Sequence record: OZ503098.1
From: a phage
Strand: one strand, 5' to 3'
DNA length: 44,954 bases
The position numbers were made by a program, and so were the translations under genes. A model generated the notes under the pieces. The model was not told where the DNA came from. It did not search any database and was given only the letters and a program-made list of their open reading frames with translations. This document shows, in pieces, positions 3 through 44,356 of the stretch; position 1 is the stretch's first letter, and every line of letters starts with the position of its first letter.

Positions 3-1745
3 TTGCAGGCTATCGCAGACCGGACCATCGCGGCTAAAAACGAGGCGGAAGGATTCCGTAACGAGGCGGAAGGATTCAAGAACACCGCCAACTCTGCGAA
101 AGATGCTGCCGTAGCCGCTAAGACCGCCGCGGAGGCAGCACAAGGTAAAGCCGAGACAGCAAAAACGGCAGCAGAGTCGGCGAAGACCGCTGCGGAGACA
201 GCTAAATCGCAGGCCGTAACCGCTAAAGACCAGGCAAAAGGATTCCGCGACGAGGCTGAAGGCTTCGCCAACAGCGCTGACGCGTCAAAGAAAGTGCCGT
301 ATGCTGGCACCATTGTCACCGCGCCAACTGGCGTGGCGGATATGCTTAAGCGGTTGCGCGATTCTGTTAAAGGCGGTTTTTGGCGCGTTGATGATATTTC
401 GCAGTTCCCAGCGGGTGAGATGGCCCCTTTCATATACGGACCCGGCGTATGTGGAGGCGCAGGGGACACCTTCTTTGCCATCAACGTAGACTATCAGACC
501 TCTCGCGTCAAAGTTTACTCGGGAAACCATAATGCGATTAACGGGACGTTGGGCAGCGTTACCGCCCTTGAGCTTGCGAAGCTGGGTGCTAACGGGGACG
601 TGGCGATCGGGGACGGCGGGACAGGCGCATCGACCGACTGGGGAGCGCGCGCCAACCTTCAAGTCATGTGCGAAAGACAGAGTTCACTGACAACTGAGAA
701 CCTTAACGATCGGAAGGGTGATAAGTCTGGATTTTATTATACTAGCATGACTGCCAACGCAACGTCGGAGCGTAATTATCCCATTCGGGAAGCAGGTTGC
801 CTACTTGTTCAGCGCACTGGCGGTAACGGTCCTGAAAGCTGCATTCAGACGTATACAACATTCAGCAGCGGGCGTCGTTTTATGCGATGGCTTAACGTGG
901 GAACTGGCACTTGGTCGCAGTGGTACGAATTATATAACTCTGGGTCGTCGCCGACTTTTGCCGGGGTGGTCACTGGCTCTGCGGTAACAGCTAAGGGCGA
1001 CAATGCCGAAGCTAGTGTCCGTGTTATTGCCGATACAGGCGGCAAATATTGTGCTCGTATTTCCGTAACGAACAACACTGCAAATAGAAGCGCTAATTTG
1101 GATCTCTACGAGGATGGCTCACTAACCACCCCCCATATAACTTCTAATGGTGGTATAGACTCCAAAGGCGGGGTGCTTTTGCGCGACACACCGTACCCGG
1201 CAGTAGCCTTTCGCACAAACCGGTATACCTCACCAAACACACAACTTGGTGCATTTACTAAGTTTGAGGTTTCGGGGCAAGATGGGGAGGTGGCGTATGT
1301 ATCTCTGTCGCGGCATTACGGTACTGGTGCGGTAGACGGGGCAATATATGTTATGTTCCCCAACACAGGCGGCACGTTGGCTTTACAGGGGACTTCAGGT
1401 GTTAATTACAAGAAAAACATTGTTGATGCCGATGCTAGCGAGGCTTTTGATAGAATCATGGGCCTGCGATTAGTCAACTTTGTTTACAAAGATGATGAAC
1501 AGGAGCGCGTTCGCTTTGGTGTTATCGCCGAAGAAGCGGAAGTAATAGCGCCGCAGTACATCAAGCACCATAAGGTACCCTACGAGGATATTATTGACGA
1601 AGACGGCAACAAAATCGGCGAGAAAACACGGGATAGACCGTCCGTCGATGTAAACCCGATCGTCATGGATTTGATGGGGTGCGTTCAATACCTAAATAAG
1701 CAGGTGGAGGAATTGAAGGCGGAGATCGCGGCGCTGAAGAAGTAA
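3..1745 (+). CDS. Tail fibre protein, C-terminal part of a gene that starts at 44407 and crosses the window junction (about 721 aa in total); C-terminal intramolecular-chaperone-like domain plus short coiled coil
   Basis: Frame open from window start to stop at 1743-1745 and continuous with the ATG at 44407 because 44828-44954 duplicates 1-127. Ala/Lys-rich repeats (NEAEGFRNEAEGFKN, AKTAAESAKTAAETAK). C-terminal segment LVNFVYKDDEQERVRFGVIAEEAEVIAPQYI resembles the conserved core of tail-fibre/endosialidase auto-cleaving chaperone domains. Hairpin terminator follows. Confidence 0.7.
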   Translation: MQAIADRTIAAKNEAEGFRNEAEGFKNTANSAKDAAVAAKTAAEAAQGKAETAKTAAESAKTAAETAKSQAVTAKDQAKGFRDEAEGFANSADASKKVPYAGTIVTAPTGVADMLKRLRDSVKGGFWRVDDISQFPAGEMAPFIYGPGVCGGAGDTFFAINVDYQTSRVKVYSGNHNAINGTLGSVTALELAKLGANGDVAIGDGGTGASTDWGARANLQVMCERQSSLTTENLNDRKGDKSGFYYTSMTANATSERNYPIREAGCLLVQRTGGNGPESCIQTYTTFSSGRRFMRWLNVGTGTWSQWYELYNSGSSPTFAGVVTGSAVTAKGDNAEASVRVIADTGGKYCARISVTNNTANRSANLDLYEDGSLTTPHITSNGGIDSKGGVLLRDTPYPAVAFRTNRYTSPNTQLGAFTKFEVSGQDGEVAYVSLSRHYGTGAVDGAIYVMFPNTGGTLALQGTSGVNYKKNIVDADASEAFDRIMGLRLVNFVYKDDEQERVRFGVIAEEAEVIAPQYIKHHKVPYEDIIDEDGNKIGEKTRDRPSVDVNPIVMDLMGCVQYLNKQVEELKAEIAALKK

Positions 1746-19808: not shown

Positions 19809-19843
19809 AGTCCCAGTGAGCTAAAACTTACTGGGACTTTTTT
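19809..19843 (+). terminator. Nine-bp hairpin plus T6 immediately upstream of the holin start
   Basis: AGTCCCAGT-gagctaaaactt-ACTGGGACT followed by TTTTTT and then ATG 19844 with no intervening SD. Confidence 0.4.
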
Positions 19844-20134
19844 ATGGATAAGCTAAACGAGTGGTTATTCGCCCTTGCGTGTCTTGCTGGTGGCTTCGTC
19901 GGCGCACGCATTCATGGCGAGGCAACGAAAGGGCCGTTGAATTTCGTTTTATATGTCGTAGTTGGCTTCCTGTGTGCCATATTTGGTGCGCCAGCTATTG
20001 CGGAGTGGTCTGGTTTGTCTGGCGAGCGCACTGTCGCCGGATTGGGCTTCGTAACTGCGATCTTCTGGATGCCAATCGCTGACCGGATCCGGGAGACTAT
20101 TGCGTCGTTCCGACTTCCGGGGGGTGCAAAATGA
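19844..20134 (+). CDS. Putative holin (96 aa, multiple TM segments)
   Basis: Small hydrophobic protein with about three TM segments immediately upstream of the endolysin. Confidence 0.45.
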   Translation: MDKLNEWLFALACLAGGFVGARIHGEATKGPLNFVLYVVVGFLCAIFGAPAIAEWSGLSGERTVAGLGFVTAIFWMPIADRIRETIASFRLPGGAK

Positions 20135-20376
20135 TTATCTCCGTCCTGTTGTTTGTTATCATAGGGGCTTCGTCCCTGTTTAACGTGTATGCGCCGTCCG
20201 TCCGGGATGGCATTTTCGGTCGGGTGCTGTATCTGTTAACGGCAATGGTCTGTATTATCGGATTGTTGCAAACAGGAGACGTATCGGATACCACCTGGAC
20301 CGCGTTAATCTGGCTGTTTGCATTGCGCACCCTGCGTAATGCTGTTTTGAATGGGGTAAAACATGCGATTCAGTGA
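20131..20376 (+). CDS. Putative holin/antiholin partner (81 aa, multiple TM segments)
   Basis: Second small membrane protein; ATGA overlap with the upstream gene; GGGGGG RBS; overlaps the endolysin start. Confidence 0.4.
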   Translation: MIISVLLFVIIGASSLFNVYAPSVRDGIFGRVLYLLTAMVCIIGLLQTGDVSDTTWTALIWLFALRTLRNAVLNGVKHAIQ

Positions 20377-20854
20377 TAACGGTCTACGATTTACGGCAGC
20401 ATGGGAGGCTTTCAGCCCGGTGCCGTATTTCGCGACCAAGAAAGAGCAGGCCCGCGGCCTGTACACCTGGGGCTATGGGCACACCGGCACTAATCCGCCA
20501 CGAAGCATTACCCGTGCGGAAGCGCTGGAACTGCTCAAGCGCGATGTGGCGTATGCCGAGGACTGGGTGAACAAATACGCACATCCGAGCATTAACCAGG
20601 CGCAATTCGACGCGCTGGTGGACCTGGTAATCAACGCCGGTCCAGGTCCGATCGTACCGGATGACGTCGCGAATGATTTCGATGATGCGGTCCGCCTGGG
20701 CGACTGGGCGAAGGTCCGTGCTACTCTGCCGCAGTTCCGCAAGCAAGGTGGCGAAGTGCTTAAGGGTCTGGTGCGCCGTGCAATCGGCAGACAGGCGTTG
20801 TTTGATGGTAAGCAGTGGGACGTTGCCGAGAAAATCGGGCGTAACGCAGCATAA
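20363..20854 (+). CDS. Endolysin, T4 E / lambda R-type lysozyme (GH24)
   Basis: N-terminal FTAAWEAFSPVPY...GLYTWGYGHTG (catalytic Glu followed by the TxGYGH-type motif); 163 aa; follows the two holin-like genes. Confidence 0.75.
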   Translation: MRFSDNGLRFTAAWEAFSPVPYFATKKEQARGLYTWGYGHTGTNPPRSITRAEALELLKRDVAYAEDWVNKYAHPSINQAQFDALVDLVINAGPGPIVPDDVANDFDDAVRLGDWAKVRATLPQFRKQGGEVLKGLVRRAIGRQALFDGKQWDVAEKIGRNAA

Positions 20855-20870
20855 TACGAGGTAACACAGT

Positions 20871-21038
20871 ATGTTAAAAAGCATTCTTGATCATAACGCC
20901 GACGCGCTCGCCGCGCTGGCTAAAACCGAAGATCCGGGCGCACGCGCTATCATCGCGGACACTATCAGCCACGCGGGGGTCTTCGATGCGAAGCTGCCAA
21001 GCCCGCCACCGCCGGAAGAACCAGACCCCACAGCGTAA
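20871..21038 (+). CDS. Small hypothetical protein (55 aa), Ala-rich with a Pro-rich C-terminus
   Basis: GAGG RBS; MLKSILDHNADALAALAKTEDPGARAIIADTISHAGVFDAKLPSPPPPEEPDPTA; last gene before the terminator. Confidence 0.3.
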   Translation: MLKSILDHNADALAALAKTEDPGARAIIADTISHAGVFDAKLPSPPPPEEPDPTA

Positions 21039-21045
21039 ACAATCA

Positions 21046-21071
21046 AGCCCGGATAATACCGGGCTTTTTAT
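21046..21071 (+). terminator. Rho-independent terminator after the lysis cassette
   Basis: AGCCCGG-ataat-ACCGGGCT followed by TTTTT. Confidence 0.6.
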
Positions 21072-21074
21072 TGC

Positions 21075-21104
21075 TTGACTCGCAACCAACATAGGGGCCA
21101 TACT
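21075..21104 (+). promoter_or_regulatory. Promoter-like element TTGACT-18-CATACT overlapped by two (T)GCAACCAA(T) motif copies
   Basis: Motif copies sit in the spacer and at the start site, i.e. operator-like placement; precedes a strong GGAGGAG RBS. Confidence 0.35.
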
Positions 21105-21133
21105 GCAACCAATCAACTGGAGGAGTAATCAAG

Positions 21134-21214
21134 ATGGCACGTAAAGATATTTGGGTATTAGCGATCTGGACCACCGCGGCTTTTATCGGCATGGTTATTT
21201 GCGAATTGATATAG
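21134..21214 (+). CDS. Possible 26-aa hydrophobic micro-protein
   Basis: Strong RBS GGAGGAG 7 nt upstream of ATG; MARKDIWVLAIWTTAAFIGMVICELI; followed by a 9-bp stem hairpin (21228-21253). Confidence 0.25.
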   Translation: MARKDIWVLAIWTTAAFIGMVICELI

Positions 21215-21275: not shown

Positions 21276-22418
21276 ATGCACCCGCAAACTAAAATTACCG
21301 ATGAGCAATTGATCGCAGAAATTCAGGCAGGGACTACAGTTAAAGAGATTGCGAAGAAATACGGGATTGCCCTACGCAATGTCTATATGCGGAAAGCCCG
21401 CCTGTCGAAAAAAGGCATTGGACACGGCAACGATGCTGTAATCCGCAAGCGCGTTGCCGACGGGTTTGGGGTTAAGCGCGTATCGGCCCTGGTGCGCGGC
21501 AATGGCGAAGAGGTCATGTCGTGGGTTATCACTGAGCAGGACAAAGAGCGCCAACTCGAAGCCATGCGCGCTGTTGTCGAGGGTATGAACAGCGAAATCA
21601 CACCGGCAGCGCCAGTAAAAGCCCCGCCAGTTCCGATCCAGGCGCTCGACTTGCTCAACCTGTACACCGTATCCGACTTCCACCTGGGCATGTTGGCATG
21701 GGGCGAGGAGACTGGCGAAGACTGGGATATGGCGATCGCCGAAGACCTGTTCTACCGCTGGTTTGTCGAAGCCTTCGCCCGCGCACCGGACGCAGGCACT
21801 GCCGTAATTAATATCCTCGGGGATATGGCCCACTTTGATAGCCTCGACGCTGTCACTCCGGCAAGTGGTCACATACTGGACGCTGACACCCGCTACCAGA
21901 AACTGGTCCGATACATGATTCGCATGGTGCGCAACGTAGTCGAACTGGCGCTGCAAAAACACCACAAAGTAAAACTGCTAATCGTCCAGGGAAATCATGA
22001 CGAGTCGGGTATGATTTGGCTGGCGGAGATGTTCAATACTCTGTACGAGAACGAGCCGCGCGTCGATGTGGATACGTCCCCGGACGTCTACAAAATGGTG
22101 CAGCACGGCAAGACCACGCTATTTTTCCACCACGGGCATAAAGCGCGATTCGATGCTATCGAGCAGGTTATGATTTCTAAATTCAGACAGGCTTTCGGAT
22201 CCAGTGAGTACAGCTACGCGCACGTAGGCCACTTGCACCACCAGAAGATTGTAGAATCCCGCAACATGATTGTTGAACAGCACCGGACGCTCGCAGCGAA
22301 AGACGCCTACGCCAGTCGTGGCGGTTGGATGTCCGGTCGCAGCGCAAACGTCATCACCTACAGCGCCAACTACGGCGAAGTAGCGCGCTTAACCATTAGC
22401 CCCGAAATGTTGAAGTAA
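21276..22418 (+). CDS. Calcineurin-like metallophosphoesterase with an N-terminal HTH-like segment
   Basis: Metallophosphoesterase motifs DFHLG, GDMAHFD (GDxxH), GNHDE, HHGH; N-terminal TVKEIAKKYGIALRNVYMRKARLSKKG looks like an HTH. Confidence 0.65.
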   Translation: MHPQTKITDEQLIAEIQAGTTVKEIAKKYGIALRNVYMRKARLSKKGIGHGNDAVIRKRVADGFGVKRVSALVRGNGEEVMSWVITEQDKERQLEAMRAVVEGMNSEITPAAPVKAPPVPIQALDLLNLYTVSDFHLGMLAWGEETGEDWDMAIAEDLFYRWFVEAFARAPDAGTAVINILGDMAHFDSLDAVTPASGHILDADTRYQKLVRYMIRMVRNVVELALQKHHKVKLLIVQGNHDESGMIWLAEMFNTLYENEPRVDVDTSPDVYKMVQHGKTTLFFHHGHKARFDAIEQVMISKFRQAFGSSEYSYAHVGHLHHQKIVESRNMIVEQHRTLAAKDAYASRGGWMSGRSANVITYSANYGEVARLTISPEMLK

Positions 22419-22449: not shown

Positions 22450-22478
22450 TTGGTGGGCTTTTTTGTGCCTGTTATAAT
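22450..22478 (+). promoter_or_regulatory. Extended -10 promoter (TGtTATAAT) upstream of the packaging genes
   Basis: TGTTATAAT at 22470-22478 (perfect TATAAT with upstream TG); weak -35 TTGGTG at 17-bp spacing. Confidence 0.4.
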
Positions 22479-22548
22479 CCCACTTAGATGGCAGGGCCGT
22501 CTCCTATGTTGCCGATGGCCGGCGCATATGAACAAAAGGGCTTATATC

Positions 22549-23100
22549 ATGGCAGAAATCAAAGTTAAGGGCCGACGCGCCAAACTGGACGGACGAGTAG
22601 CAGTAACCCCGCGCCGTAAACCAGGCGAGCAAACCGAGCATACCAATCTCGGACCTGAGATCGAGTACGGCAAGCGCCGTAAAGGCGGCAAATGTGGACG
22701 CCCTACTGACTACCGATCTGTTTACTGCGACCAGCTTCGTCGCTATTTTGCCGACGCCGACGCCTGGCAGGTCAATTACTCCGATAAAGGCGCTGCGCAG
22801 GTAATCCCTCGCAACAAAATGCCAACCTTCGGCAGATTTGCCGCGGAAATCGGTGTGGGCGTAGCTTGCCTGTATCGCTGGGCGCGCGCACATGAGGAGT
22901 TTGCCGAGGCGATGGCGGACGCAATGGAGTTGCAGAAAACTTTCCTGATGGAAGCTGGCGGCGTGACTATCGCGGCAGGCTTCGCGACCTTCCTGCTCAA
23001 AGCCAATCACGGCGTACGCGACGATATCCCACTGGATGACGACGAAGATGATAACGGCGACGTCGTTGTCGAACCTACCGGCAAAGGCCAGGGTGAGTAA
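22549..23100 (+). CDS. Terminase small subunit
   Basis: Immediately upstream of and overlapping the large terminase gene; HTH-like FGRFAAEIGVGVACLYRWARAHEEF; basic N-terminus, acidic C-terminus; start chosen at ATG 22549 (MAEIKVKG). Confidence 0.55.
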   Translation: MAEIKVKGRRAKLDGRVAVTPRRKPGEQTEHTNLGPEIEYGKRRKGGKCGRPTDYRSVYCDQLRRYFADADAWQVNYSDKGAAQVIPRNKMPTFGRFAAEIGVGVACLYRWARAHEEFAEAMADAMELQKTFLMEAGGVTIAAGFATFLLKANHGVRDDIPLDDDEDDNGDVVVEPTGKGQGE

Positions 23101-24485
23101 TGCGTAACTATGCGGCAGAACACCGCGCACTGGAACGCGCGATCGCGAAGCGCAACCGACCACCGCGCCCGACACGCGTTGCGCAGGCGGTGCGGCTTTA
23201 CCAGCCTGATTGCCTACCGCACCAGGTCGAACTACTGCGGGACACGAAGACTAAAATCCTCGGCCTGTGTTCCGGCTTCGGCGGCGGCAAGTCATGGGTC
23301 GCAGCCCGTAAGGTAATCCAGCTTTTAACCCTGAACCCGGGTCATGATGGCATCGTTACAGAACCGACTATTCCCCTCCTGGTTAAAATCATGTATCCAG
23401 AATTGGAGAAGGCTTTCGACGAGGCTGGCTTCCGGTGGAAGTTCAACAAGCAGGACAAGATCTATAGCGTTCTGGTGAAAGGCAAATGGACCCGCGTGAT
23501 CTGTGAATCAATGGAGAACTATACCCGTCTGATCGGGGTCAACGCCGCGTGGATTGTTGCCGACGAGTTCGATACCACGAAACAAGACGTCGCAATGGCG
23601 GCTTATCACAAATTGCTCGGTCGTCTGCGTGCGGGCGTGGTCCGTCAGTTTGTCATCGTATCCACGCCGGAAGGCTTCCGGGCAATGTATCAAATTTTCG
23701 AGGTGGAGAAGGATAGCCAGAAACGTTTGATCCGGGCGAAGACCACCGACAACCACCATTTACCGGCAGACTTTATCGACACGCTGCGCAGTCAGTACCC
23801 GGCGAACCTTATTGACGCGTACCTGAACGGCCTGTTTGTTAACCTTACGTCGGGCGCGGTGTACAAGATGTTCAACCGCGAGGAGAACGCCAGCACCGAA
23901 GAAGTGCAGCCGGACGACACGCTGATTATCGGCATGGACTTTAACGTCACGAAGATGGCGGCGGTTGTGTACGTCAGACGGCAGCGAATCACAGAGAACA
24001 AGGAGTTCCGCGACGAGATTCACGCGGTGGATGAATTTGTGGACCTGTTTGACACTCCGGCGATGATCGAGGCGATCGAGGAGCGCTACCCGGAACATTG
24101 CGCCGCCGGTAAAGTCGTAGTTTACCCGGATAGCAGTGGCAAGTCGCGTAAGACGGTCAACGCGTCGTCGTCCGATATCGCGCAACTGGAAGATGCGGGC
24201 TTCGAGGTGGAATATGACAGTGTTAACCCGCCTGTGAAAGACCGATTGATCGCGATGAATACGATGATGTGCAACTCGAAGGGTGTGCGCCAGTATTTTG
24301 TCAACCTGGATAAATGCCCTACACTAGCGAAATGTCTGGAACAGCAGGTGTACGACCTGAAGAAAGGCGAGCCGGATAAAACTGCCGGTGTGGACCACAT
24401 GAATGACGCAGCGGGCTACCCTATTGCGCACTTGTTCCCTGTGATTCGTCCGATCGCCGTTGTTCCTACCGTAGATTTCTACTAA
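23100..24485 (+). CDS. Terminase large subunit
   Basis: Walker A-like GFGGGKS, Walker B-like AAWIVADEFD, C-terminal nuclease-like region; 461 aa; TAATG overlap with the small subunit gene. Confidence 0.8.
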   Translation: MRNYAAEHRALERAIAKRNRPPRPTRVAQAVRLYQPDCLPHQVELLRDTKTKILGLCSGFGGGKSWVAARKVIQLLTLNPGHDGIVTEPTIPLLVKIMYPELEKAFDEAGFRWKFNKQDKIYSVLVKGKWTRVICESMENYTRLIGVNAAWIVADEFDTTKQDVAMAAYHKLLGRLRAGVVRQFVIVSTPEGFRAMYQIFEVEKDSQKRLIRAKTTDNHHLPADFIDTLRSQYPANLIDAYLNGLFVNLTSGAVYKMFNREENASTEEVQPDDTLIIGMDFNVTKMAAVVYVRRQRITENKEFRDEIHAVDEFVDLFDTPAMIEAIEERYPEHCAAGKVVVYPDSSGKSRKTVNASSSDIAQLEDAGFEVEYDSVNPPVKDRLIAMNTMMCNSKGVRQYFVNLDKCPTLAKCLEQQVYDLKKGEPDKTAGVDHMNDAAGYPIAHLFPVIRPIAVVPTVDFY

Positions 24486-24496
24486 GGAAACCGACC

Positions 24497-26017
24497 ATGA
24501 CCGTTAACGTTGACAACCAGCACCCGCTCTATGCGCGCATCGCGCCAGAGTGGAAAATGATCCGTGACTGCGTAGCGGGGGAGCGCGCCGTGAAGGCGTG
24601 CGGCCCCTTGTACCTGCCACACCCCGCAAGCGGCGACACCACCGACCCGAAATCACGGGCACGGTATAAGGCGTATAAGCAACGTGCTGTCTTCCTGAAC
24701 GCCACCGCCCGCACACTGAATGCGCTGTTAGGTGTCGCCTTCGCCAAACCGGTGAGTATGGACCTTTCCGGGGCAATGGCTGACCTGATTGATGACGTAG
24801 ACGGCAGCGGGATGCCGCTGGCGCAACTCCTGCGCGGCGCTATGTCGGAAGTGCTGCAATCGGGCCGCGCAGGCTTTATGGTGGACTACGACCGCCAGGC
24901 GCATTTTGACGAACTGGGTAACGTAGTGCCGCAGACAGCCGCGGAGATGGCGGCACACCGCCCGCTTATCCGCCTGTATACGGCTGAACAGATCATTAAC
25001 TGGCGGCAGACCCACGGGGTTGACACGCTAATCGTGCTGAAGGAAACGGACGAAATCAGCACCGAAGACCCGGACGACTTCGCAAACCACGAAGTAACGA
25101 TCTGGACCGAGCTTCGCATGATTGCAGGTAAGGCCCACGCCCGCCGCTGGTTTTACAACGCGGACACGTCCGAGGTGCAGATGGACTTGCCGCGAGGCTT
25201 CACCCGCACCGACCTTGTACCATTGGTGGATGCCTCCGGTAATGCGCTAACTCAACTGCCTTTTTGTTGGTGTGGTGCGGTTGATAACAATGCAACACCA
25301 GATGCCGCACCGCTGGCGGATATCGCGTCCATCAACATTAAGCACTACAACGCCGAAGCAGACGTCGCCGAGATTGCGCACATTGTGGGCCAACCTACAC
25401 TCATTGCGACCGGTCTGACCCAATCATGGGCCGATAAAAACCTGAAGGGCGGCATCGCACTAGGCGCGACTAAGGGTGTTATCCTGGGGCAGAATATGGA
25501 CGCTAAACTGCTTCAGGCTGAGGAGAGAAACCTGTCAGTTGCGCTGTGTGAGCGACGCGAATTGCAAATGGCTAAACTGGGCGCTGCCCTGGTTGAGAAG
25601 GGGACCGCACCTAAGACGGCAACGGAGGCGGCTTATGATGCGCAGACTGATAACAGTATCTTGTCGCTGATTGCCGGTAATGTTGAGAAGGCTTTCAACC
25701 GTGCGCTGCAAATCGTCCAGCTTTTCACGGGGGACGCCGCAACCCAGCAAGTCACGTTGAATAAGTTTTACACCGAGATCACGGTGGACGCACAGCTTAT
25801 GACCGCGATGATGGCAGGTGTGCAGACTGGTACTGTCCGTCTGGCGGACTTTATCAAGTGGATGATGGCCCAGGGCGTTATCGATGACTCGCAAACCGTT
25901 GAGCAGGTGGAAGACGAATTGCGAAATCAGAATCCATTGCCTCAAATGTCCCCGGATGCGGTAGAATCTACCGAAGAAGACCCGGACAAGGTATCGGACA
26001 ATGGCGAAGACAATTAA
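24497..26017 (+). CDS. Portal protein
   Basis: 506-aa ORF immediately after the large terminase with an acidic C-terminal tail; assignment by position and size. Confidence 0.65.
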   Translation: MTVNVDNQHPLYARIAPEWKMIRDCVAGERAVKACGPLYLPHPASGDTTDPKSRARYKAYKQRAVFLNATARTLNALLGVAFAKPVSMDLSGAMADLIDDVDGSGMPLAQLLRGAMSEVLQSGRAGFMVDYDRQAHFDELGNVVPQTAAEMAAHRPLIRLYTAEQIINWRQTHGVDTLIVLKETDEISTEDPDDFANHEVTIWTELRMIAGKAHARRWFYNADTSEVQMDLPRGFTRTDLVPLVDASGNALTQLPFCWCGAVDNNATPDAAPLADIASINIKHYNAEADVAEIAHIVGQPTLIATGLTQSWADKNLKGGIALGATKGVILGQNMDAKLLQAEERNLSVALCERRELQMAKLGAALVEKGTAPKTATEAAYDAQTDNSILSLIAGNVEKAFNRALQIVQLFTGDAATQQVTLNKFYTEITVDAQLMTAMMAGVQTGTVRLADFIKWMMAQGVIDDSQTVEQVEDELRNQNPLPQMSPDAVESTEEDPDKVSDNGEDN

Positions 26018-27104
26018 TCAATATATGGCGGATCGAATGATTCGCCGACACATCTTCACCCAGCGCCTGAGTAATGACCAGGCGCGGAGGGTGCTGGCTA
26101 TGTGGGAGAAGTTCCGGCCTACATTACTAGGAAAGCTGACTGAGTTACTTGATGGCAAATCGTCAATGCATAACAAGGCACTTTCCACTCTGTTAACGCA
26201 ACTCGACAAGACCGTCAAAACGGAACTGCGCACCGAGTTTAAGGCGCTGGCTGAAAGCCTTCAGGAGTTCGCCGACACCGAGGCTGATTATCTCGCCGAC
26301 ACATTAACGGCAGCGATCCAGCCCGCGGTCGCCGTACCGGCTGTTGAGGTGGTGGGTGTTGTGACCGGCGCGCAGATCGCGGCGACTGCAATGAAAAACC
26401 CGTTCCAGGGTAACACCATGATGCAGTGGCCCGATTCACTTTCCGAGTGGACCAGGACGCAGATCGGCAATCAGGTGCGCGCCGGATTCATCCAGGGCAA
26501 GCCGACGATGGAAATTATCGCGGATGTGAGGCGCGCGCTAGGCGGTCGAAGTGCGCAAGCAATCTCAAGCGTTGTTAAGTCCGCAGTCAACCACTATGCG
26601 GCGACCGCCCGCGAATTAATGGTGAAAGCTAATGACGATATTCTCGAAGGTCGCCAATGGTTATCTACATTGGACACGCATACTTCTCCCATGTGCCAGC
26701 TACGCGATCGCCTGTTTTATCCGGTTGATGTTACTCCCGATACGAAAGGGAAGCGAGGCGGAAAAGTGGTGGCGGGATCACAATATGGCGCCGGTCCGGG
26801 CAAGCTACATTATTGCTGCCGCTCGACGGAGACGTGGAAAGTCAAAGGTATGGAAGATTGGCCCAGTGGTAAGCGTCCGGCACTGAAGGCCGACGCAGGC
26901 AGATTGCTGAGTGAGCATGTCGACGCGCAGACTGATTTCTTCTCATGGGTGCAGCGCCAGCCGCGCCATATCCTGGAGGAATTATATGGAGTGCAACGCG
27001 CCGACCAGATTATGCGCGGCGTGAAAGTGCCGAAGATGTTCACCGATTCTGGCGAACTGATGTCTATTGCACAGCTTAAAAACCGGGGGTTATGGCGTGA
27101 TTAA
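26001..27104 (+). CDS. Head morphogenesis protein (Mu F-like / SPP1 gp7-like minor head protein)
   Basis: Follows the portal gene; LSTLDTHTSPMCQLRDRLFY matches the conserved D-x-R-T...C core of this family. Confidence 0.6.
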   Translation: MAKTINQYMADRMIRRHIFTQRLSNDQARRVLAMWEKFRPTLLGKLTELLDGKSSMHNKALSTLLTQLDKTVKTELRTEFKALAESLQEFADTEADYLADTLTAAIQPAVAVPAVEVVGVVTGAQIAATAMKNPFQGNTMMQWPDSLSEWTRTQIGNQVRAGFIQGKPTMEIIADVRRALGGRSAQAISSVVKSAVNHYAATARELMVKANDDILEGRQWLSTLDTHTSPMCQLRDRLFYPVDVTPDTKGKRGGKVVAGSQYGAGPGKLHYCCRSTETWKVKGMEDWPSGKRPALKADAGRLLSEHVDAQTDFFSWVQRQPRHILEELYGVQRADQIMRGVKVPKMFTDSGELMSIAQLKNRGLWRD

Positions 27105-27426
27105 ATACGCAGCGATTGGGCTGGTTATCGGTCTGGCGGTAGGATTCTGGCTAGGTGACTCCTATCGCGCTGGCGTAGTGGCGGAGGCGGCGCAAGAAGC
27201 CCAAGCCCAAGCCCAACGGCAGCAAACTAAAGTTGTTGAGCGCTCCGTGCAGGCCGAACAAGCCCGCGACGTAGAATACCGGACTATCACGAAAGAGGTT
27301 GTTAAATATGTTACGCGCCCTAACCGCCCTGATTGTAGTTTTGATGCTGAGCGCGTGCGGATCAAGCAACGTGCCGTTGATGCCGCTAACGGAGTCGGCA
27401 CTGCGACCGCCGTGCAAGTTCGATAG
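27097..27426 (+). CDS. Putative i-spanin (Rz-like): N-terminal TM segment plus Gln/Ala-rich coiled coil
   Basis: GTG start at 27097 with GGGGG RBS (the track's TTG start at 27067 is also possible); AAIGLVIGLAVGFWLG TM segment followed by AQEAQAQAQRQQTKVVERSVQAEQ; overlaps an embedded lipoprotein ORF. Confidence 0.45.
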   Translation: MIKYAAIGLVIGLAVGFWLGDSYRAGVVAEAAQEAQAQAQRQQTKVVERSVQAEQARDVEYRTITKEVVKYVTRPNRPDCSFDAERVRIKQRAVDAANGVGTATAVQVR

Positions 27427-27580
27427 CCCGTCCGCAGACCCCGACGAGGATTTGATGATTGACGTGAAAAATATGGAATGCGGGGCGAAGCTAAGGGCGC
27501 AGGTGCTGGAGTTGCAGCAAATAATTAAGGGCCGTAATGGCCCCCTTTTCGTTAGCGCGGAATACCGCAAATCTCGTTGA
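27308..27580 (+). CDS. Putative o-spanin (Rz1-like outer-membrane lipoprotein), overlapping the i-spanin gene in the +1 frame
   Basis: ATG 27308 with AAAGAGG RBS; signal peptide with lipobox MLRALTALIVVLMLSACGSS; Pro-rich mature part; 90 aa. Confidence 0.5.
   Translation: MLRALTALIVVLMLSACGSSNVPLMPLTESALRPPCKFDSPSADPDEDLMIDVKNMECGAKLRAQVLELQQIIKGRNGPLFVSAEYRKSR
27529..27551. terminator. Bidirectional hairpin at the convergence of the o-spanin gene and the minus-strand moron
   Basis: GGGCC-gtaat-GGCCC followed by CCTTTTCGTT on plus and by UUAAUUAUUU on minus. Confidence 0.4.
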
Positions 27581-28316
27581 GAGTTTTCACATCCAGCGCC
27601 ACCGCCGTGGATTTTGGCTTGTCCGGGTAAGGGATGAATTGCTCAACTTCAGGCCATGCCTTAATCAGCTTCTTGTCAGTATTGTGCAGGTCCAGCACAC
27701 CGGTAACGGTCAACTTGAACGCGTCATACTTAGCCCGCAACTCACGGCGGGCCTTGTCGTTACGGTCCAGGCGCTTACAGAAATCATGATCCGCCGGGAA
27801 ATCCGCACGGCAGTGTGGCTTATAGATCGGCAGCGCTTTCCCGTCCTCGTCCACTTCGCACACTGACGCGAGCATAACTTCTTCAAACCCCGGTACGATA
27901 TCGCCTAAATCGGGGGATAGCTTATTCATGTATTTATATTCCCAGCATCCGCGATGTACGCGGTATTGGCGACCGTCACCGCTCAAGGATAAGGTGCGAA
28001 CATTTCCGCCTGCGTTGATTTCGAAAGTGGCGTCGTAAACGCTGCCGATACCTTTCGGGCGGTCGGCGTTATAACGATATGTCGCCTTGTTGGTGTATAC
28101 ACAGACGCCGTACATCTGCGACGGGTCATCGCCGATTGCTTCAATGTGCGCGAGTAGCTCGGCGAACGTGCGAATGCCTTCCGGCATACAGTCCAGCGTA
28201 ATGGCATAAGCCAGGTCGCGCGAGTCCATCATGATTTGTTTGGCTTCGGTTGCGATTTCGTGGTCGCGCAGGATGTTAGCCAGAATCTGATTTTTAATGT
28301 CTTTAGTAAGTCTCAT
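27552..28316 (-). CDS. Opposite-strand moron: hypothetical protein (254 aa) of unknown function
   Basis: Only minus-strand gene inside the 15-43 kb plus-strand block; ATG 28316 with GAGGA RBS; own promoter-like element upstream and hairpin downstream; Cys/His-containing (HRGCWEYKY, KPHCRADFPADHDFCKR) but no motif I can name. Confidence 0.55.
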   Translation of the reverse strand: MRLTKDIKNQILANILRDHEIATEAKQIMMDSRDLAYAITLDCMPEGIRTFAELLAHIEAIGDDPSQMYGVCVYTNKATYRYNADRPKGIGSVYDATFEINAGGNVRTLSLSGDGRQYRVHRGCWEYKYMNKLSPDLGDIVPGFEEVMLASVCEVDEDGKALPIYKPHCRADFPADHDFCKRLDRNDKARRELRAKYDAFKLTVTGVLDLHNTDKKLIKAWPEVEQFIPYPDKPKSTAVALDVKTLNEICGIPR

Positions 28317-28345
28317 TTTTGTGTCCTCGTTGTTGGTGTGCAACC

Positions 28346-28375
28346 AATATATTGCAACCAATACCCGGATTGCAA
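28346..28375 (-). promoter_or_regulatory. Promoter for the moron: TTGCAA-18-TATATT on the minus strand, overlapping two ATTGGTTGCA copies
   Basis: Minus-strand reading: TTGCAAtccgggtATTGGTTGCAaTATATTGGTTGCAC; same architecture as the 18062-18090 promoter. Confidence 0.4.
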
Positions 28376-28382
28376 GCGAATT

Positions 28383-28410
28383 TTGCGATTATTTTTATCA
28401 CTGATAATAT
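28383..28410 (+). promoter_or_regulatory. Promoter-like element TTGCGA-16-TGaTAATAT upstream of the scaffold gene
   Basis: Extended -10-like TGATAATAT at 28402-28410; divergent from the moron promoter. Confidence 0.3.
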
Positions 28411-28464
28411 TAAGGCGTGAAGTCGAGCGGGTGGCCTGCTCTGCCACAATCCCAGGGGGATAGC

Positions 28465-29166
28465 ATGAAACTTACTAAAGCAGAATATGACGCGTTGCCG
28501 GAAGGTATGAAGGCGCTTTTTGTTGCCGATGGTGACGGGTATAAATCAACGTTCATGACCGCCGAAGAAGTACAGGCGGAGATTAAGGGTCTGAAAGACA
28601 ATAACGCGAAGCTGGTTAGCGAGAAGAAAGCAGAAGCCGAACGTCGCGCCGAAGCCGAGCGCCTTGCGAAAGAGAAAGAGGAAGCCGCCGCGCGCAAAAA
28701 TGGCGACCTCGAAGCGATCGACAAGTCCTGGAAAGATAAGTTTGCGAAACACGAAGCAGACACATCGGGAAAAATCGAAGCCTACCGCAAGCAGATCCAC
28801 GACCTAACCATCGGCAGCGCTGCCAAAGATTTGGCCTCGAAGCTGTTCGGTAAGAATGCGGGCATCATGCAACGCCACGTTATGGACCGCCTGACGCTGG
28901 AAGACGGCGAAGACGGCAGCTTGAAGGTGCGTGTCTTGCAGGATGGCAAACCATCCGCGCTGACTATGGAAGAGCTTGAAAAAGAGTTCCGTAATAACGC
29001 CGATTTTGCATCCGTCCTGGCAGGCACGCCAGCCGGTGGTGCGCCGAGCAAACCGACGCAGGTCGTCGAAGATGTGAAGTCTAAAATCACTATGGGCCAC
29101 AGCTTTGGCATCACCGACCTGACGAAACAGGCGGGTGAAATCATCGCTAAAATGGGCGACGAGTAA
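28465..29166 (+). CDS. Putative scaffolding protein
   Basis: ATG 28465 with AGGGGGA RBS; Lys/Glu/Ala-rich predicted coiled coil (AEAERRAEAERLAKEKEEAAARK); immediately upstream of the major capsid gene. Confidence 0.5.
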   Translation: MKLTKAEYDALPEGMKALFVADGDGYKSTFMTAEEVQAEIKGLKDNNAKLVSEKKAEAERRAEAERLAKEKEEAAARKNGDLEAIDKSWKDKFAKHEADTSGKIEAYRKQIHDLTIGSAAKDLASKLFGKNAGIMQRHVMDRLTLEDGEDGSLKVRVLQDGKPSALTMEELEKEFRNNADFASVLAGTPAGGAPSKPTQVVEDVKSKITMGHSFGITDLTKQAGEIIAKMGDE

Positions 29167-29171
29167 GCAAA

Positions 29172-29196
29172 TTGCCCGCGAAAGCGGGCAATTTTG
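29172..29196 (+). terminator. Hairpin plus T-run after the scaffold gene
   Basis: TTGCCCGC-gaaa-GCGGGCAA followed by TTTT. Confidence 0.5.
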
Positions 29197-29263
29197 CGAG
29201 CGCGTAAATCTAAGGTAACATTAACGGTACTGGGCGAATGCTCACAACTCAAAGGATTCCGAT

Positions 29264-30364
29264 ATGTCTTTAACAGTGTTCCAGCGTAAACTCGTCACCG
29301 CGGTTACGCAAATGATCCCCGATAACCTGAACGTGTTCAACGCTGCCGCTAACGGTGCTGTTGTTCTCGGCACGGGTGAAGTGCTGAAGGATGTTGTAGA
29401 AAAAATGTCCGTAGGCTTGATCGCCAACCTCGTTACCGACCGTAACGCCTATGCCCCTGTCGGTACTCCGGCGACCGCAAAAGTGCTGGCGCGTATGCTG
29501 ACCAACTCCGTCAACCTGTCCGCGAAAGTGGGTCCGGTAGCAATCACTAAGGCTATGATGGCTAAAATCGAAACCAACGTTAACAGCGTTGCGGCTGAGA
29601 TTGCGGCACAGGCTACTCAAGCGATTATGCTGCATTACCTGAAGGCTGGCATCGGCGCAAGTAAAGCGGCGATCGAGAGCAACGCAGCGGCAAAATACAC
29701 CCAACCGGCGCGCGTTGACGGCGTTGGCGGTCGTACCTTCCCGACCCTGGCAGACTTCCCGCTGGCGGCTTCTAAGTTCGGCGATCAGGCGTCTTTGATT
29801 AAGTCCTGGTTTATGGACGGCGTCACCTGGGCAAACTTCATTGCGTACCAGGCACTCCCTTCCGCTGAACAGGTATTCGCAATTGGCGATCTCCAGGTAA
29901 TGGGTGATGGCCTGGGCCGTCGCTTCATTATCTCCGATGCCGCTGCCGATGCTATGGGCACGGGTAACATGCTGGGTCTGGTCCCTGGCGCGGTTGCAGT
30001 TACCACCAACGGTCTTGATATGCTGGCGCAGGAGAAAGGCGGTAACGAGAACATCGAACGTTGGTGGCAGGGCGAGTTCGACTTCAACGTGGCGGTTAAA
30101 GGCTATCGTCTGAAGGCGTCCGCACGTACTACGGTCGAAGGTGTTCGCTCGTTCAAACTGTCCGACATCACCACTTCCGCTAACTGGGAACTGGATCAGG
30201 GCCAGGTAGACAACGCACCGGCAACCGTTCAGGATGTTGGCGCTGTTGGTGACGGCGATACTAAAGGCCGTCGTAAGACCCCGGCCGCACAGGAAGTGCC
30301 GACCCGTCACATCAAGGAAACGGCAGGCGTACTGGTTACGCTTACCCCGACCAAAGCGTCCTGA
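29264..30364 (+). CDS. Major capsid protein
   Basis: 366-aa ORF after the scaffold gene, AAAGGA RBS, followed by a strong terminator; assignment by position, size and composition. Confidence 0.6.
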   Translation: MSLTVFQRKLVTAVTQMIPDNLNVFNAAANGAVVLGTGEVLKDVVEKMSVGLIANLVTDRNAYAPVGTPATAKVLARMLTNSVNLSAKVGPVAITKAMMAKIETNVNSVAAEIAAQATQAIMLHYLKAGIGASKAAIESNAAAKYTQPARVDGVGGRTFPTLADFPLAASKFGDQASLIKSWFMDGVTWANFIAYQALPSAEQVFAIGDLQVMGDGLGRRFIISDAAADAMGTGNMLGLVPGAVAVTTNGLDMLAQEKGGNENIERWWQGEFDFNVAVKGYRLKASARTTVEGVRSFKLSDITTSANWELDQGQVDNAPATVQDVGAVGDGDTKGRRKTPAAQEVPTRHIKETAGVLVTLTPTKAS

Positions 30365-43140: not shown

Positions 43141-43165
43141 TTAAAGCCCCGCAAGGGGCTTTAAT
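43141..43165. terminator. Bidirectional hairpin between the J-like gene (+) and the convergent minus-strand cassette
   Basis: AAAGCCCC-gcaa-GGGGCTTT palindrome between stop 43138 (+) and stop 43161 (-). Confidence 0.45.
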
Positions 43166-44096
43166 ACATGTTGGGGAGGTACGGCAGCGGAGTTGGTATT
43201 GTAACGTCGGGTCTGTTGCCGATTTCGTACCTTACAATTCGTGAGCCAGTTCCAGACCTTACATATCCGCCGCTCATAACCACGCCTTTGTTTCTTAGTT
43301 CCTTGTAGGCGGGTATAGCCCTTGTATTGAACCCACACCGTAGAATTGGGAAGTAGGAGTCACCAATATACTGATTGCTACCTGACAGACTTATAAACCC
43401 AGACACAATAAGGGGTCTGGTAACTGTTGAAAGTGTACAGGCGCCGTTGCGGTTAAATATGTTTAACCCTGGCCCCGGCACGGGCGCAACCATCTGGAAA
43501 ATAACCAAATCCATAGTAACACTTCCGGGTGTGTGCCCTGTATCATTTGTGTTTATGTTTGTGCATATCAACCGATTAACGCCGTCGTACTCAACTGAAA
43601 CACCAGAATTATCCCACCTGCCGAAAGGTATGCCGTATATTGGAAGGGTGTAACTATCATGGAATGAAATAGTTTGAGCAAATTTGCAGATAAGCAACCT
43701 GTCAGTTGTGGTTATCGAGGTGAAATCCGTGCTGTCGGCAACGTAAAGCCCCTGTCCTGTCGATGCTCTAAGAACCTCAACTACAGTACCCGAAAACTGC
43801 GTTACGCGGTCTGGATAACCGTTCTCATAGCCAATAGATATTGTTCCACTGGATGCTGTTGAAGAAAAGCCCTTTATATAATAAACCTCAACACCACGAT
43901 CTAGTTCGAATGAGTATGCGCCATTGTTCGGCAGAAGAAACCTCGAAGCCCCTTCATTACCTTGAATAGGGAATGACTTGCTAAACCCGCCACTTGAAAC
44001 ATTGAAGTTCCCCGCAAAATTCAAGGCACGCATACCCGCGGTGATTATCATCGGGTTGCGTCCGTCCTTAAGATCAATGTAGATACCTTGCGCCAT
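43161..44096 (-). CDS. Hypothetical protein (311 aa), second gene of a reverse-strand two-gene cassette
   Basis: ATG 44096 overlaps the stop of the upstream lipoprotein gene (TAATG); Gly/Ser/Thr-rich, beta-rich composition; no signal peptide recognised. Confidence 0.5.
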   Translation of the reverse strand: MAQGIYIDLKDGRNPMIITAGMRALNFAGNFNVSSGGFSKSFPIQGNEGASRFLLPNNGAYSFELDRGVEVYYIKGFSSTASSGTISIGYENGYPDRVTQFSGTVVEVLRASTGQGLYVADSTDFTSITTTDRLLICKFAQTISFHDSYTLPIYGIPFGRWDNSGVSVEYDGVNRLICTNINTNDTGHTPGSVTMDLVIFQMVAPVPGPGLNIFNRNGACTLSTVTRPLIVSGFISLSGSNQYIGDSYFPILRCGFNTRAIPAYKELRNKGVVMSGGYVRSGTGSRIVRYEIGNRPDVTIPTPLPYLPNMY

Positions 44097-44326
44097 TAGT
44101 TCCACTCCCGAGAGCCATAATCACGAACTGAGCCACCATGCCCTTTAATTCCGTCATAACGAATATCAACTTCACCCGCCGGAACAACTACACCGCCTTT
44201 CCATTTAGCCACACATACGCCGCTTGCTTGCGTCGCGCACCAACCATCCGTACGCGGGCCAGAAGAGCAACCAACAGCCATGACTACTAACGCGGCAATG
44301 ATTGCGGATTTGATTAAAGTTTTCAT
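44096..44326 (-). CDS. Small lipoprotein (76 aa): candidate receptor-masking / superinfection-exclusion factor
   Basis: ATG 44326 with AGGAG RBS; signal peptide with lipobox [23 protein letters not shown]; several Cys in the mature part; lies between tail tip and tail fibre genes on the opposite strand. Confidence 0.55.
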
Positions 44327-44356
44327 GGTATCATCTCCTGTATTGGGTTGAGTTTT

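Follow-up and report, generated by a model that had tools for sequence, protein, structure and literature searches.

Spanins are the phage proteins that disrupt the outer membrane of the bacterium during lysis, and in phage P2 the spanin genes are located in the lysis cassette. The sequence examined here, OZ503098.1 (44,954 nt in all, hereafter the window), is a near-complete Dhillonvirus genome from an HK578-like coliphage, in which an earlier note made from the letters alone had proposed an overlapped Rz/Rz1-type spanin pair lying among the head genes. This locus raises the questions of whether the two overlapping open reading frames (ORFs) encode a spanin, whether both reading frames are genuine, and whether the location of the pair is unusual. 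Our analysis indicates that the two ORFs very probably encode the overlapped two-component Dhillonvirus spanin of the "Jersey" family. The pair is already catalogued and annotated in the Dhillonvirus group in the same head-cluster slot, and is thus ordinary rather than novel. The features discussed below are collected in Table 1.

Table 1 Features of the spanin locus and of the lysis genes in the window
Feature	Coordinates	Strand	Basis
Putative i-spanin gene	27097..27426	+	GTG start, 109 aa; phrog_2536 "Rz-like spanin", 1.9e-36
i-spanin Shine-Dalgarno, GGGGG	27085..27089	+	Read from sequence
Predicted N-terminal transmembrane helix of the i-spanin, codons (aa 4-20)	27106..27156	+	Kyte-Doolittle; helical in AF2
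Putative o-spanin gene	27308..27580	+	ATG start, 90 aa; phrog_5672, 1.2e-25, and phrog_1267, 1.9e-11, both "Rz-like spanin"
o-spanin Shine-Dalgarno, AAGAGG, 9 nt before the ATG	27293..27298	+	Read from sequence
Lipobox codons, L-S-A-C (aa 14-17)	27347..27358	+	Pattern search; L14 and C17 invariant in alignment
Holin gene 1 (96 aa)	19844..20134	+	phrog_2359 "holin", 1.3e-31
Holin gene 2 (81 aa)	20131..20376	+	phrog_2508 "holin", 1.9e-27; two hydrophobic segments
Endolysin gene (163 aa, soluble lysozyme)	20363..20854	+	PF00959, 6.4e-21; phrog_7 "endolysin"
Terminator-like hairpin after the lysis cassette	21045..21066	.	Consensus scan only
Promoter-like site downstream of that hairpin	21075-21104		Consensus scan only
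Bidirectional terminator-like hairpin, GGGCC-GTAAT-GGCCC plus T tract	27529..27549	.	Terminator scan; common to the convergent Nmad5 gene

Family assignment of the overlapping ORFs

Both ORFs match PHROG spanin families. The first also matches phrog_8821 and phrog_1152, and all five families recovered (phrog_2536, phrog_8821, phrog_1152, phrog_5672, and phrog_1267) carry the annotation "Rz-like spanin". A curated census provides near-identical sister proteins, as Kongari et al. 2018 (PMC6139136) assign the HK578, EP23, JL1, EK99P-1, and SSL-2009a pairs to the "Jersey" families of overlapped i- and o-spanins. Alignment with these annotated spanins, a check suggested in the earlier note, showed that the 109-aa protein differs from the JL1 i-spanin (109 aa in the census table) at one position and that residues 1-75 of the second protein are identical to the curated EP23 o-spanin (76 aa). 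The sequence matches (1.9e-36 and 1.2e-25), the near-identity to listed members, and the alignability of the Jerseyvirus and Kagunavirus proteins place both partners in the Jersey family. GenBank entries of relatives likewise label the locus i-spanin and o-spanin, or Rz-like spanin.

The Dhillonvirus pairs (HK578 gp05 with an unannotated o-spanin, EP23p05/p06, and those of JL1, EK99P-1, and SSL-2009a) comprise the same genes with the same Shine-Dalgarno sites and overlap, lie in the same place after the head-morphogenesis gene, and correspond to phrog_2536 plus phrog_5672. The window pair differs from them at the 3´ end only, by a 1-nt deletion. The i-spanin Shine-Dalgarno site is the one marked for HK578, EP23, and JL1, and the o-spanin site the one marked for EP23, by Kongari et al. 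2018 (PMC6139136). More distant relatives are found in Jerseyvirus and Kagunavirus (Guernseyvirinae), where the PVP-SE2 gp53/gp52, phiEc3 gp06/gp07, and SeF1 Gp_009/Gp_010 pairs are homologous (38-45% identity) and also overlapped. The i-spanins of these phages are longer (~125-128 aa), with extra residues after the transmembrane segment and at the C-terminus, and, unlike in the window, no Nmad5 gene lies downstream.

By contrast, a Pfam search with both proteins gave no family at E ≤ 1, including lambda Rz (PF03245) and Rz1 (PF06085), an NCBIfam search gave no significant match, and a PDB sequence search found no relative. These searches gave nothing meaningful, neither a direct link by homology to lambda Rz/Rz1 nor a solved structure. 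The tie to experimentally studied spanins is one of architecture and of PHROG and curator annotation, without direct sequence homology.

Two proteins from two reading frames

The first ORF begins within the last 8 nt of the head-morphogenesis gene (26001..27104) and had been described as encoding a transmembrane segment plus a coiled coil. The transmembrane segment is borne out: residues 4-20, YAAIGLVIGLAVGFWLG, form the sole hydrophobic segment of the protein (Kyte-Doolittle 15-residue mean up to 2.33) and alone exceed the threshold of 1.6 that we applied. The coiled coil is not robust, and the table of Kongari et al. 2018 (PMC6139136) predicts none in the HK578, EP23, and JL1 i-spanins, while putting the helix content of the periplasmic domain at ~49-51% in sister i-spanins. 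Single-sequence AF2 models, which served as rough secondary-structure support only, were of low confidence for both proteins (pLDDT 58.5 and 52.5 for the i- and o-spanin, respectively) and placed i-spanin helices at residues 3-72 and 84-97. Hydropathy and the low-confidence model thus describe one N-terminal transmembrane helix and, after it, a largely helical periplasmic domain, as in an i-spanin.

The second ORF carries a lipoprotein signal. Its signal sequence reads MLRALTALIVVLMLSA up to the cysteine and continues CGSS; the n-region is positively charged, the core is hydrophobic, and the +2 position is Gly, not Asp. The LSAC lipobox claimed for this frame is present on pattern search, and its Leu and Cys are invariant across genera. 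The mature protein is predicted to begin with a lipidated Cys17, and the +2 Gly is consistent with sorting to the outer membrane. In the mature part, a linker containing Pro precedes a conserved acidic motif and an amphipathic helix at the C-terminus (DPDEDLxIDVxNxEC...LRxxVxxLQ); the description of the mature part as Pro-rich holds for the N-terminal portion but not overall, as Pro accounts for 7 of the 74 mature residues. Cysteines are available in the predicted periplasmic parts of both partners: C80 of the i-spanin, which has homologues in Jerseyvirus, Kagunavirus, and a Serratia phage, and C36 and C58 of the o-spanin are invariant in the four genera aligned, as is o-spanin C17. A unimolecular spanin of the T1 gp11 type was considered and rejected: hydrophobic windows in the o-spanin start at residues 1-8 only, within the signal sequence, and the C-terminus is polar.

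The o-spanin ORF lies in the +1 frame of the i-spanin gene, shares 119 nt with it (27308-27426), and extends beyond its stop, exactly as the coordinates first proposed for the pair (27308..27580 starting inside 27097..27426) imply. This is the overlapped architecture, for which P2 LysB/LysC is the prototype: there too the o-spanin gene begins in the +1 frame within the i-spanin gene and ends beyond the i-spanin stop, although no sequence similarity to the window pair was detected and the two belong to different families of the Kongari census. The lambda Rz/Rz1 genes, by contrast, are embedded and adjoin S and R. The window pair resembles them in predicted topology (a type II inner-membrane protein and an outer-membrane lipoprotein), in its periplasmic cysteines, and in presumed mechanism, but the o-spanin is longer than lambda Rz1 and has a predicted C-terminal helix. 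Such a helix is also predicted for the o-spanin of T4 PseT.3/PseT.2, which differ in their separated architecture and belong to another sequence family.

An overlap of this kind could in principle be spurious, with only the 109-aa membrane protein being real and the +1-frame ORF a chance open frame. Many GenBank records indeed omit the o-spanin or use a downstream start that yields 52 aa without a signal sequence; however, Kongari et al. 2018 (PMC6139136) ascribe such short annotations to wrong start calls. Moreover, both frames are kept at 38-45% amino acid identity in Jerseyvirus, Kagunavirus, and the Serratia phage, and the o-spanin ORF is conserved across genera (42-45% identity), together with its Shine-Dalgarno sequence, the lipobox, and two more cysteines. 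The second ORF also matches PHROG families of its own. The distribution of variable sites is telling: counted at i-spanin codon positions 1, 2, and 3, they number 19, 11, and 44 before the overlap, 16, 5, and 13 within it, and 20, 11, and 4 after it. Past 27426, 20 of 35 variable sites thus fall at o-spanin codon position 3 compared to 4 at position 2. Up to 27307 variability tracks the first frame, inside the overlap it tracks both, and beyond the overlap it tracks the second, a switch that indicates selection on both reading frames and hence dual coding. The comparative data therefore already refute the chance-frame explanation, to which we assign a practically negligible probability.

To place the lipobox in context, the window was scanned in six frames for strict lipoboxes, which recovered the o-spanin ORF and three others, all antisense inside long genes; the strict pattern overlooked one genuine lipoprotein (AVGC box, 44096..44329, minus strand). 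The gene for this second lipoprotein adjoins the tail-fibre genes, like the RTP rtp44/45 pair. As an o-spanin candidate it was rejected, as its PHROG family has no known function and no gene for a type II membrane protein overlaps it. A spanin beside the endolysin was rejected as well: that slot holds a conserved 55-aa ORF (phrog_11068) without a transmembrane segment or lipobox. Across the lipobox scan, the endolysin slot, and the second lipoprotein, no other spanin-like candidate was found in the window.

Placement in the head cluster and the lysis pathway

The pair lies within the packaging/head gene cluster, apart from the holin-endolysin cassette, as the earlier note had held. The cassette is where it was said to be (19844..20854), but 6.2 kb, rather than the 7 kb given, separates the endolysin stop from the spanin start. 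The novelty implied for this arrangement does not hold, as the slot between the head-morphogenesis and scaffold genes is the same in all four genera inspected (Dhillonvirus, Jerseyvirus, Kagunavirus, and that of the Serratia phage) and already appears in annotations. We found no comment in the literature on the head-module location of spanins in Jersey-like phages; one Dhillonvirus and one Jerseyvirus genome paper name the genes but do not comment on where they lie. The SeF1 holins fall into the same two PHROG families as those of the window (phrog_2359 and phrog_2508), and the pair is located elsewhere in the SeF1 genome, while the best PHROG match of its endolysin is phrog_33083 versus phrog_7 in the window. 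The window endolysin shows no transmembrane-like segment on hydropathy analysis, the N-terminus included. Between the endolysin and the packaging/head genes fall the 21045-21066 hairpin and the 21075-21104 promoter-like site, making it plausible that lysis functions are split over two transcription units, with the candidate boundary at 21045-21104 taken from consensus scans alone.

This placement also allows a different function to be envisaged, in which the pair would be a membrane protein and lipoprotein acting in superinfection exclusion, in receptor masking (T5 Llp, Cor-type), or as a head-assembly accessory; such a role would account for the position inside the packaging/head cluster, 6.2 kb from the holin and endolysin genes. 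That the lambda Rz/Rz1 Pfam models went unmatched and that our literature search found no experimental study of any Jersey-family spanin are compatible with it. However, unlinked spanins are known: T4 PseT.3/PseT.2, whose genes are unlinked to the holin and endolysin genes, are the classic case. In addition, an outer-membrane lipoprotein gene nested in the +1 frame of a gene for a type II inner-membrane protein is diagnostic of spanins, both proteins match curated spanin families, and both partners have conserved periplasmic cysteines. Without the pair, the genome would lack a spanin, and a separate exclusion-type lipoprotein candidate already adjoins the tail-fibre genes. A non-lysis role thus appears very improbable.

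For the pair as a spanin, we infer the mechanism of the Jersey family from that of lambda Rz/Rz1. Because the GTG overlaps the head-morphogenesis stop, the i-spanin would probably be produced from the late packaging/head transcript by translational coupling, while the o-spanin would be translated from the internal +1-frame ATG with its own Shine-Dalgarno sequence. The i-spanin is expected to be anchored in the inner membrane by the helix of residues 4-20, with ~85 residues, most of them helical, projecting into the periplasm. After export, the o-spanin would receive its lipid at Cys17 and, because the +2 residue is Gly and not Asp, be delivered to the outer membrane, into its inner leaflet. 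By analogy with lambda, the periplasmic ends of the two proteins may then bind and become disulfide-linked via C80, C36, and C58, forming complexes that would cross the periplasm through the peptidoglycan mesh. Once the holins (19844..20376) release the endolysin (20363..20854) and this enzyme destroys the peptidoglycan, the freed complexes would collapse and fuse the inner membrane with the outer, the final step of lysis.

A missing G and a displaced stop at the 3´ end of the o-spanin gene

At 27529-27531 the window reads GGG where all relatives read GGGG. Because the run is 1 nt short, the family stop TAA (27535-27537) is out of frame, and the gene has 90 codons here compared to 76 aa in all eight GenBank relatives translated, whose stop lies 14 codons earlier; the terminal "P-stop" of the relatives becomes "RNGPLFVSAEYRKSR-stop". 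As tblastn with the 90-aa ORF ran through the in-frame stop of the relatives, the extension was compared by a 61-nt megablast and exact-pattern scans instead. The 14-codon extension reflects a sequencing error or a mutation private to the window, not a family feature.

A homopolymer sequencing or assembly artefact would make the extension (27536..27580) illusory and the true gene 76 aa, ending at the family stop. The missing G is the sole indel in the alignment of both spanin genes and is private to the window: no GenBank phage matched the 61-nt stretch around it without a gap, and the exact-pattern scan of IMG/VR gave 0 matches compared to 7 for the normal version. It also weakens the terminator stem (-10.1 kcal/mol here versus -13.4 and -15.4 in relatives), at a site where the HK578 record annotates terminators, and would move the stop codon past the terminator. 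A genuine mutation is, however, compatible with all of these data. The tail past the conserved helix varies in length, the Serratia phage protein having 5 more residues than those of Jerseyvirus and Kagunavirus, and lambda spanin defects are tolerated under laboratory plating, which also counts against an artefact. We give the artefact about an even chance. If the sequence is accurate, much of the o-spanin mRNA might lack a stop, and the o-spanin of this isolate could be impaired, because the stop is displaced past the terminator hairpin. That the o-spanin gene of the window truly carries the private frameshift and, separately, that spanin dosage is tied to head-gene expression through the conserved position of the pair as a translationally coupled final cistron of the packaging/head operon, a position found in Dhillonvirus, Jerseyvirus, Kagunavirus, and the Serratia phage, is a combination we regard as unlikely.

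Beyond correct annotation, the significance of the locus is small. The o-spanin annotation should begin at ATG 27308 and not at a downstream Met, as it does in several GenBank records. If the frameshift is true, with the stop ~30 nt past the hairpin, the isolate would be a natural variant with either a 14-residue extension or largely non-stop mRNA, and would show how far the C-terminus and dosage of a Jersey-family o-spanin can change without loss of viability. With the pair assigned, the lysis set of this genome is complete, comprising two holins, an endolysin, an i-spanin, and an o-spanin, and gene position is a poor guide to spanins in this phage lineage.

Overlapped spanin genes of the Jersey family

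Both members of the overlapped Rz/Rz1-type pair proposed in the earlier note were confirmed from the sequence and the ORF list. The i-spanin ORF runs from a GTG to a stop codon ending at 27426 (109 residues), carries a GGGGG Shine-Dalgarno 7 nt upstream and overlaps the head-morphogenesis stop by 8 nt (GTGATTAA). The o-spanin ORF (90 residues) starts at an ATG in the +1 frame relative to the i-spanin, 9 nt downstream of AAGAGG; it overlaps the i-spanin ORF by 119 nt and extends beyond it. Its N-terminus, MLRALTALIVVLMLSA followed by CGSS, has a basic n-region, a hydrophobic core and the anticipated LSAC lipobox with Gly at +2, and two more cysteines lie at positions 36 and 58. A unimolecular spanin was rejected because this protein is a lipoprotein without a C-terminal TMD. 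The mature part had been described as Pro-rich; prolines are concentrated in its N-terminal portion but overall account for only 7 of 74 residues. Similarly, the expected i-spanin TM segment corresponds to its sole hydrophobic segment (residues 4–20; the remainder, with a single Cys at position 80, is polar and charged), but the coiled coil proposed with it is not robust. None is predicted for the HK578, EP23 and JL1 i-spanins in the spanin census by Kongari et al. 2018 (PMC6139136). The single-sequence AF2 model of the i-spanin has helices at 3–72 and 84–97, at low confidence, and that of the o-spanin a disordered linker followed by a C-terminal helix (53–77).

The i-spanin matches phrog_2536 (1.9e-36) and, more weakly, phrog_8821 and phrog_1152, and the o-spanin matches phrog_5672 (1.2e-25) and phrog_1267 (1.9e-11); these five families all carry the annotation "Rz-like spanin". 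The census places both spanins of EK99P-1, EP23, HK578, JL1 and SSL-2009a, all five Dhillonviruses or close kin, in the overlapped "Jersey" family, and its supplementary table lists the same Shine-Dalgarno sites (PMC6139136). There, the 109-residue JL1 i-spanin differs from ours at one position, while the 76-residue EP23 o-spanin is identical to residues 1–75 of ours. By sequence, the pair is a member of the Jersey family (phrog_2536/phrog_5672). Its genes overlap in the manner of P2 LysB/LysC, the prototype of that architecture, and its predicted topology and mechanism are those of lambda Rz/Rz1, although the Pfam Rz and Rz1 models do not match it; no significant NCBIfam or PDB relative of either spanin was found.

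The spanin reading, and the placement of the pair, are already known and annotated. GenBank labels the locus "i-spanin" and "o-spanin" in the BASEL phages KarlBarth and Oekolampad, "Rz-like spanin" twice in EP23 and EK99P-1, and elsewhere "putative spanin", and a 2025 Dhillonvirus genome paper includes an Rz-like spanin in the lysis system. Several GenBank Dhillonvirus records (L001, 2881..3039; L004 and L007, both 630..788) call a 52-residue o-spanin from a downstream Met, without signal peptide and lipobox, and further records leave out one or the other spanin entirely. The census curators noted a wrong start in the deposited EP23 o-spanin gene (PMC6139136).

Several data argue against chance ORFs. 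A strict lipobox pattern, sought in six frames across the window, was found in the o-spanin ORF and in three others, all antisense within long genes. When 11 distinct Dhillonvirus sequences were aligned, variable sites at i-spanin codon positions 1/2/3 numbered 19/11/44 upstream of the overlap, 16/5/13 within it and 20/11/4 downstream; thus, the third-position signal moves to the o-spanin frame exactly where the i-spanin ORF ends. Judged from these counts, the overlap is constrained by both frames. Both proteins are also detectable in Jerseyvirus PVP-SE2, Kagunavirus phiEc3 and Serratia phage Smarc3 (38–45% identity), with invariant residues that include EV.[KR]Y...P.R..C.F...RV..K..A...AN in the i-spanin and the lipobox Leu and Cys, a PPC motif and DxDxDL..DV.N..C...LR..V..LQ in the o-spanin.

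The analysis shows topology signals, overlapping genes, conserved sequences and cysteines in both spanins, and the partner holins with a soluble lysozyme-type endolysin. The likely mechanism is modelled on lambda Rz/Rz1, as reviewed in PMC6139136. The inner membrane would anchor the i-spanin and the outer membrane the lipidated o-spanin, with the periplasmic ends of the two proteins joining into disulfide-stabilised complexes across the periplasm; once the endolysin had stripped the peptidoglycan, these complexes would fuse the two membranes. Plausible, if speculative, contact surfaces are an acidic motif (DPDEDL) in the o-spanin and a basic stretch (ERVRIKQR) in the i-spanin.

Genomic setting and the split lysis genes

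A megablast search of GenBank phages with 26000–29200 returned 159 records, nearly all from Dhillonvirus phages (HK578-like siphophages) of Escherichia or Shigella; Shigella phage StarDew was the best match (96.1%, whole query). Dhillonvirus genomes are roughly 44–45 kb, similar to the 44,954 nt of the window, which is therefore an essentially complete Dhillonvirus genome. Campylobacter phage A144 (MG065648.1, ~97% identical to the spanin locus) and one "Acinetobacter" phage record also contain Dhillonvirus DNA and are probably mislabelled or contaminated entries.

Features of the window, with local gene order derived from PHROG and Pfam scans
Feature	Coordinates	Strand	Basis
Terminator-like hairpin	19809–19838		consensus scan
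Holin	19844..20134	+	PHROG/Pfam scans
Holin	20131..20376	+	PHROG/Pfam scans
Endolysin, PF00959	20363..20854	+	PHROG/Pfam scans
55-aa ORF, phrog_11068	20871..21038	+	
Strong terminator-like hairpin	21045–21066		consensus scan
Promoter-like site	21075–21104		consensus scan
Interval with 26-aa ORF	21075..21214	+	
DNA repair exonuclease	21276..22418	+	PHROG/Pfam scans
Terminase small subunit	22450..23100	+	PHROG/Pfam scans
Terminase large subunit	23100..24485	+	PHROG/Pfam scans
Portal	24497..26017	+	PHROG/Pfam scans
Head morphogenesis	26001..27104	+	PHROG/Pfam scans
Spanin ORF pair	27097..27580	+	PHROG/Pfam scans
i-spanin ORF	27097..27426	+	sequence, ORF list
o-spanin ORF	27308..27580	+	sequence, ORF list
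Hairpin	27529–27543		consensus scan
Nmad5-domain gene	27552..28361	−	PHROG/Pfam scans
Scaffold	28417..29166	+	PHROG/Pfam scans
Major head protein	29264..30364	+	PHROG/Pfam scans
Lipoprotein/membrane protein pair	43161..44329	−	

The noted separation of the spanins from the holin-endolysin cassette is real, 6.2 kb from endolysin end to i-spanin start, and is not unusual in this phage lineage. The o-spanin retrieved 647 phage records by tblastn; the examples from Jerseyvirus, Kagunavirus and Serratia phage have it in the same slot, with the head-morphogenesis gene and a small neighbour upstream and the scaffold and major capsid genes directly downstream of the pair. The HK578 map has the same split, as does Jerseyvirus SeF1, whose genome paper lists spanins Gp_009/010 (phrog_2536, phrog_5672) at a distance from holins Gp_063/064 (phrog_2359, phrog_2508) and from endolysin Gp_065; its spanins and holins fall into the families found in the window. 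T4 is the textbook case of spanins unlinked to holin and endolysin.

Consensus scans suggest that the lysis cassette and the spanins form separate transcription units, with terminator-like hairpins on either side of the cassette, a promoter-like site (TTGACT-18-CATACT) just after the second, and a hairpin at the very end of the o-spanin gene, where HK578 depositors also annotate terminators. The overlap of the i-spanin GTG with the head-morphogenesis stop suggests, speculatively, that i-spanin translation is coupled to that of the late head operon.

Other genes were also observed. The usual spanin slot, directly 3' of the endolysin, holds a conserved 55-aa ORF of unknown function with a Pro-rich C-terminus (PSPPPPEEPDP), in which no TMD or lipobox was found; HK578 has an Ig-domain gene there. 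Downstream of the promoter-like site is a hydrophobic ORF of 26 aa (MARKDIWVLAIWTTAAFIGMVICELI); its Shine-Dalgarno is GGAGGAG, and it matched no PHROG. Adjoining the tail-fibre genes are two further genes, the upstream one for a second lipoprotein (77 aa; phrog_4281, function unknown) and the downstream one for a 314-aa "membrane protein" of phrog_1265. In HK578 these two are annotated as resembling RTP rtp44 and an RTP putative lipoprotein; they probably belong to the superinfection-exclusion type and are not a spanin. Between the spanins and the scaffold gene, and convergent to the former, is a gene with nucleotide modification associated domain 5 (Nmad5; PF18757, 1.4e-58). This slot is variable: Jerseyvirus, Kagunavirus and Serratia relatives lack the Nmad5 gene, HK578 has a different gene there, and phage "rolling" carries an additional one on the minus strand, under the annotation "DNA polymerase III beta subunit".

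A one-base deletion at the o-spanin stop

Novelty is confined to the o-spanin stop, which is affected by a probable one-nucleotide error or mutation. In all eight GenBank relatives that were translated, the o-spanin ends in ...IIKGP-TAA, the TAA lying within the loop of a terminator hairpin, GGGGCC-GTAAT-GGCCCC. The window has GGG in the hairpin stem at 27529–27531, where relatives have GGGG, and so loses the family stop codon (altered region 27529..27537); the frame thus shifts at the last two o-spanin codons and continues for 14 further codons (RNGPLFVSAEYRKSR) to a TGA at 27578–27580, and this extension reaches into the convergent Nmad5 gene at its 3' end. The missing G, the sole indel in the two-gene alignment of Dhillonvirus sequences, is private to the window among GenBank phages and IMG/VR: no GenBank phage gave an ungapped match to a 61-nt stretch across the deletion, and an exact IMG/VR search found the deletion variant 0 times versus 7 for the normal version. 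The hairpin is also weaker, at -10.1 kcal/mol, whereas relatives reach -13.4 and -15.4. The missing G is about as likely to reflect a homopolymer sequencing error as a private mutation; in the latter case, any transcript terminated at the hairpin would carry no o-spanin stop codon.
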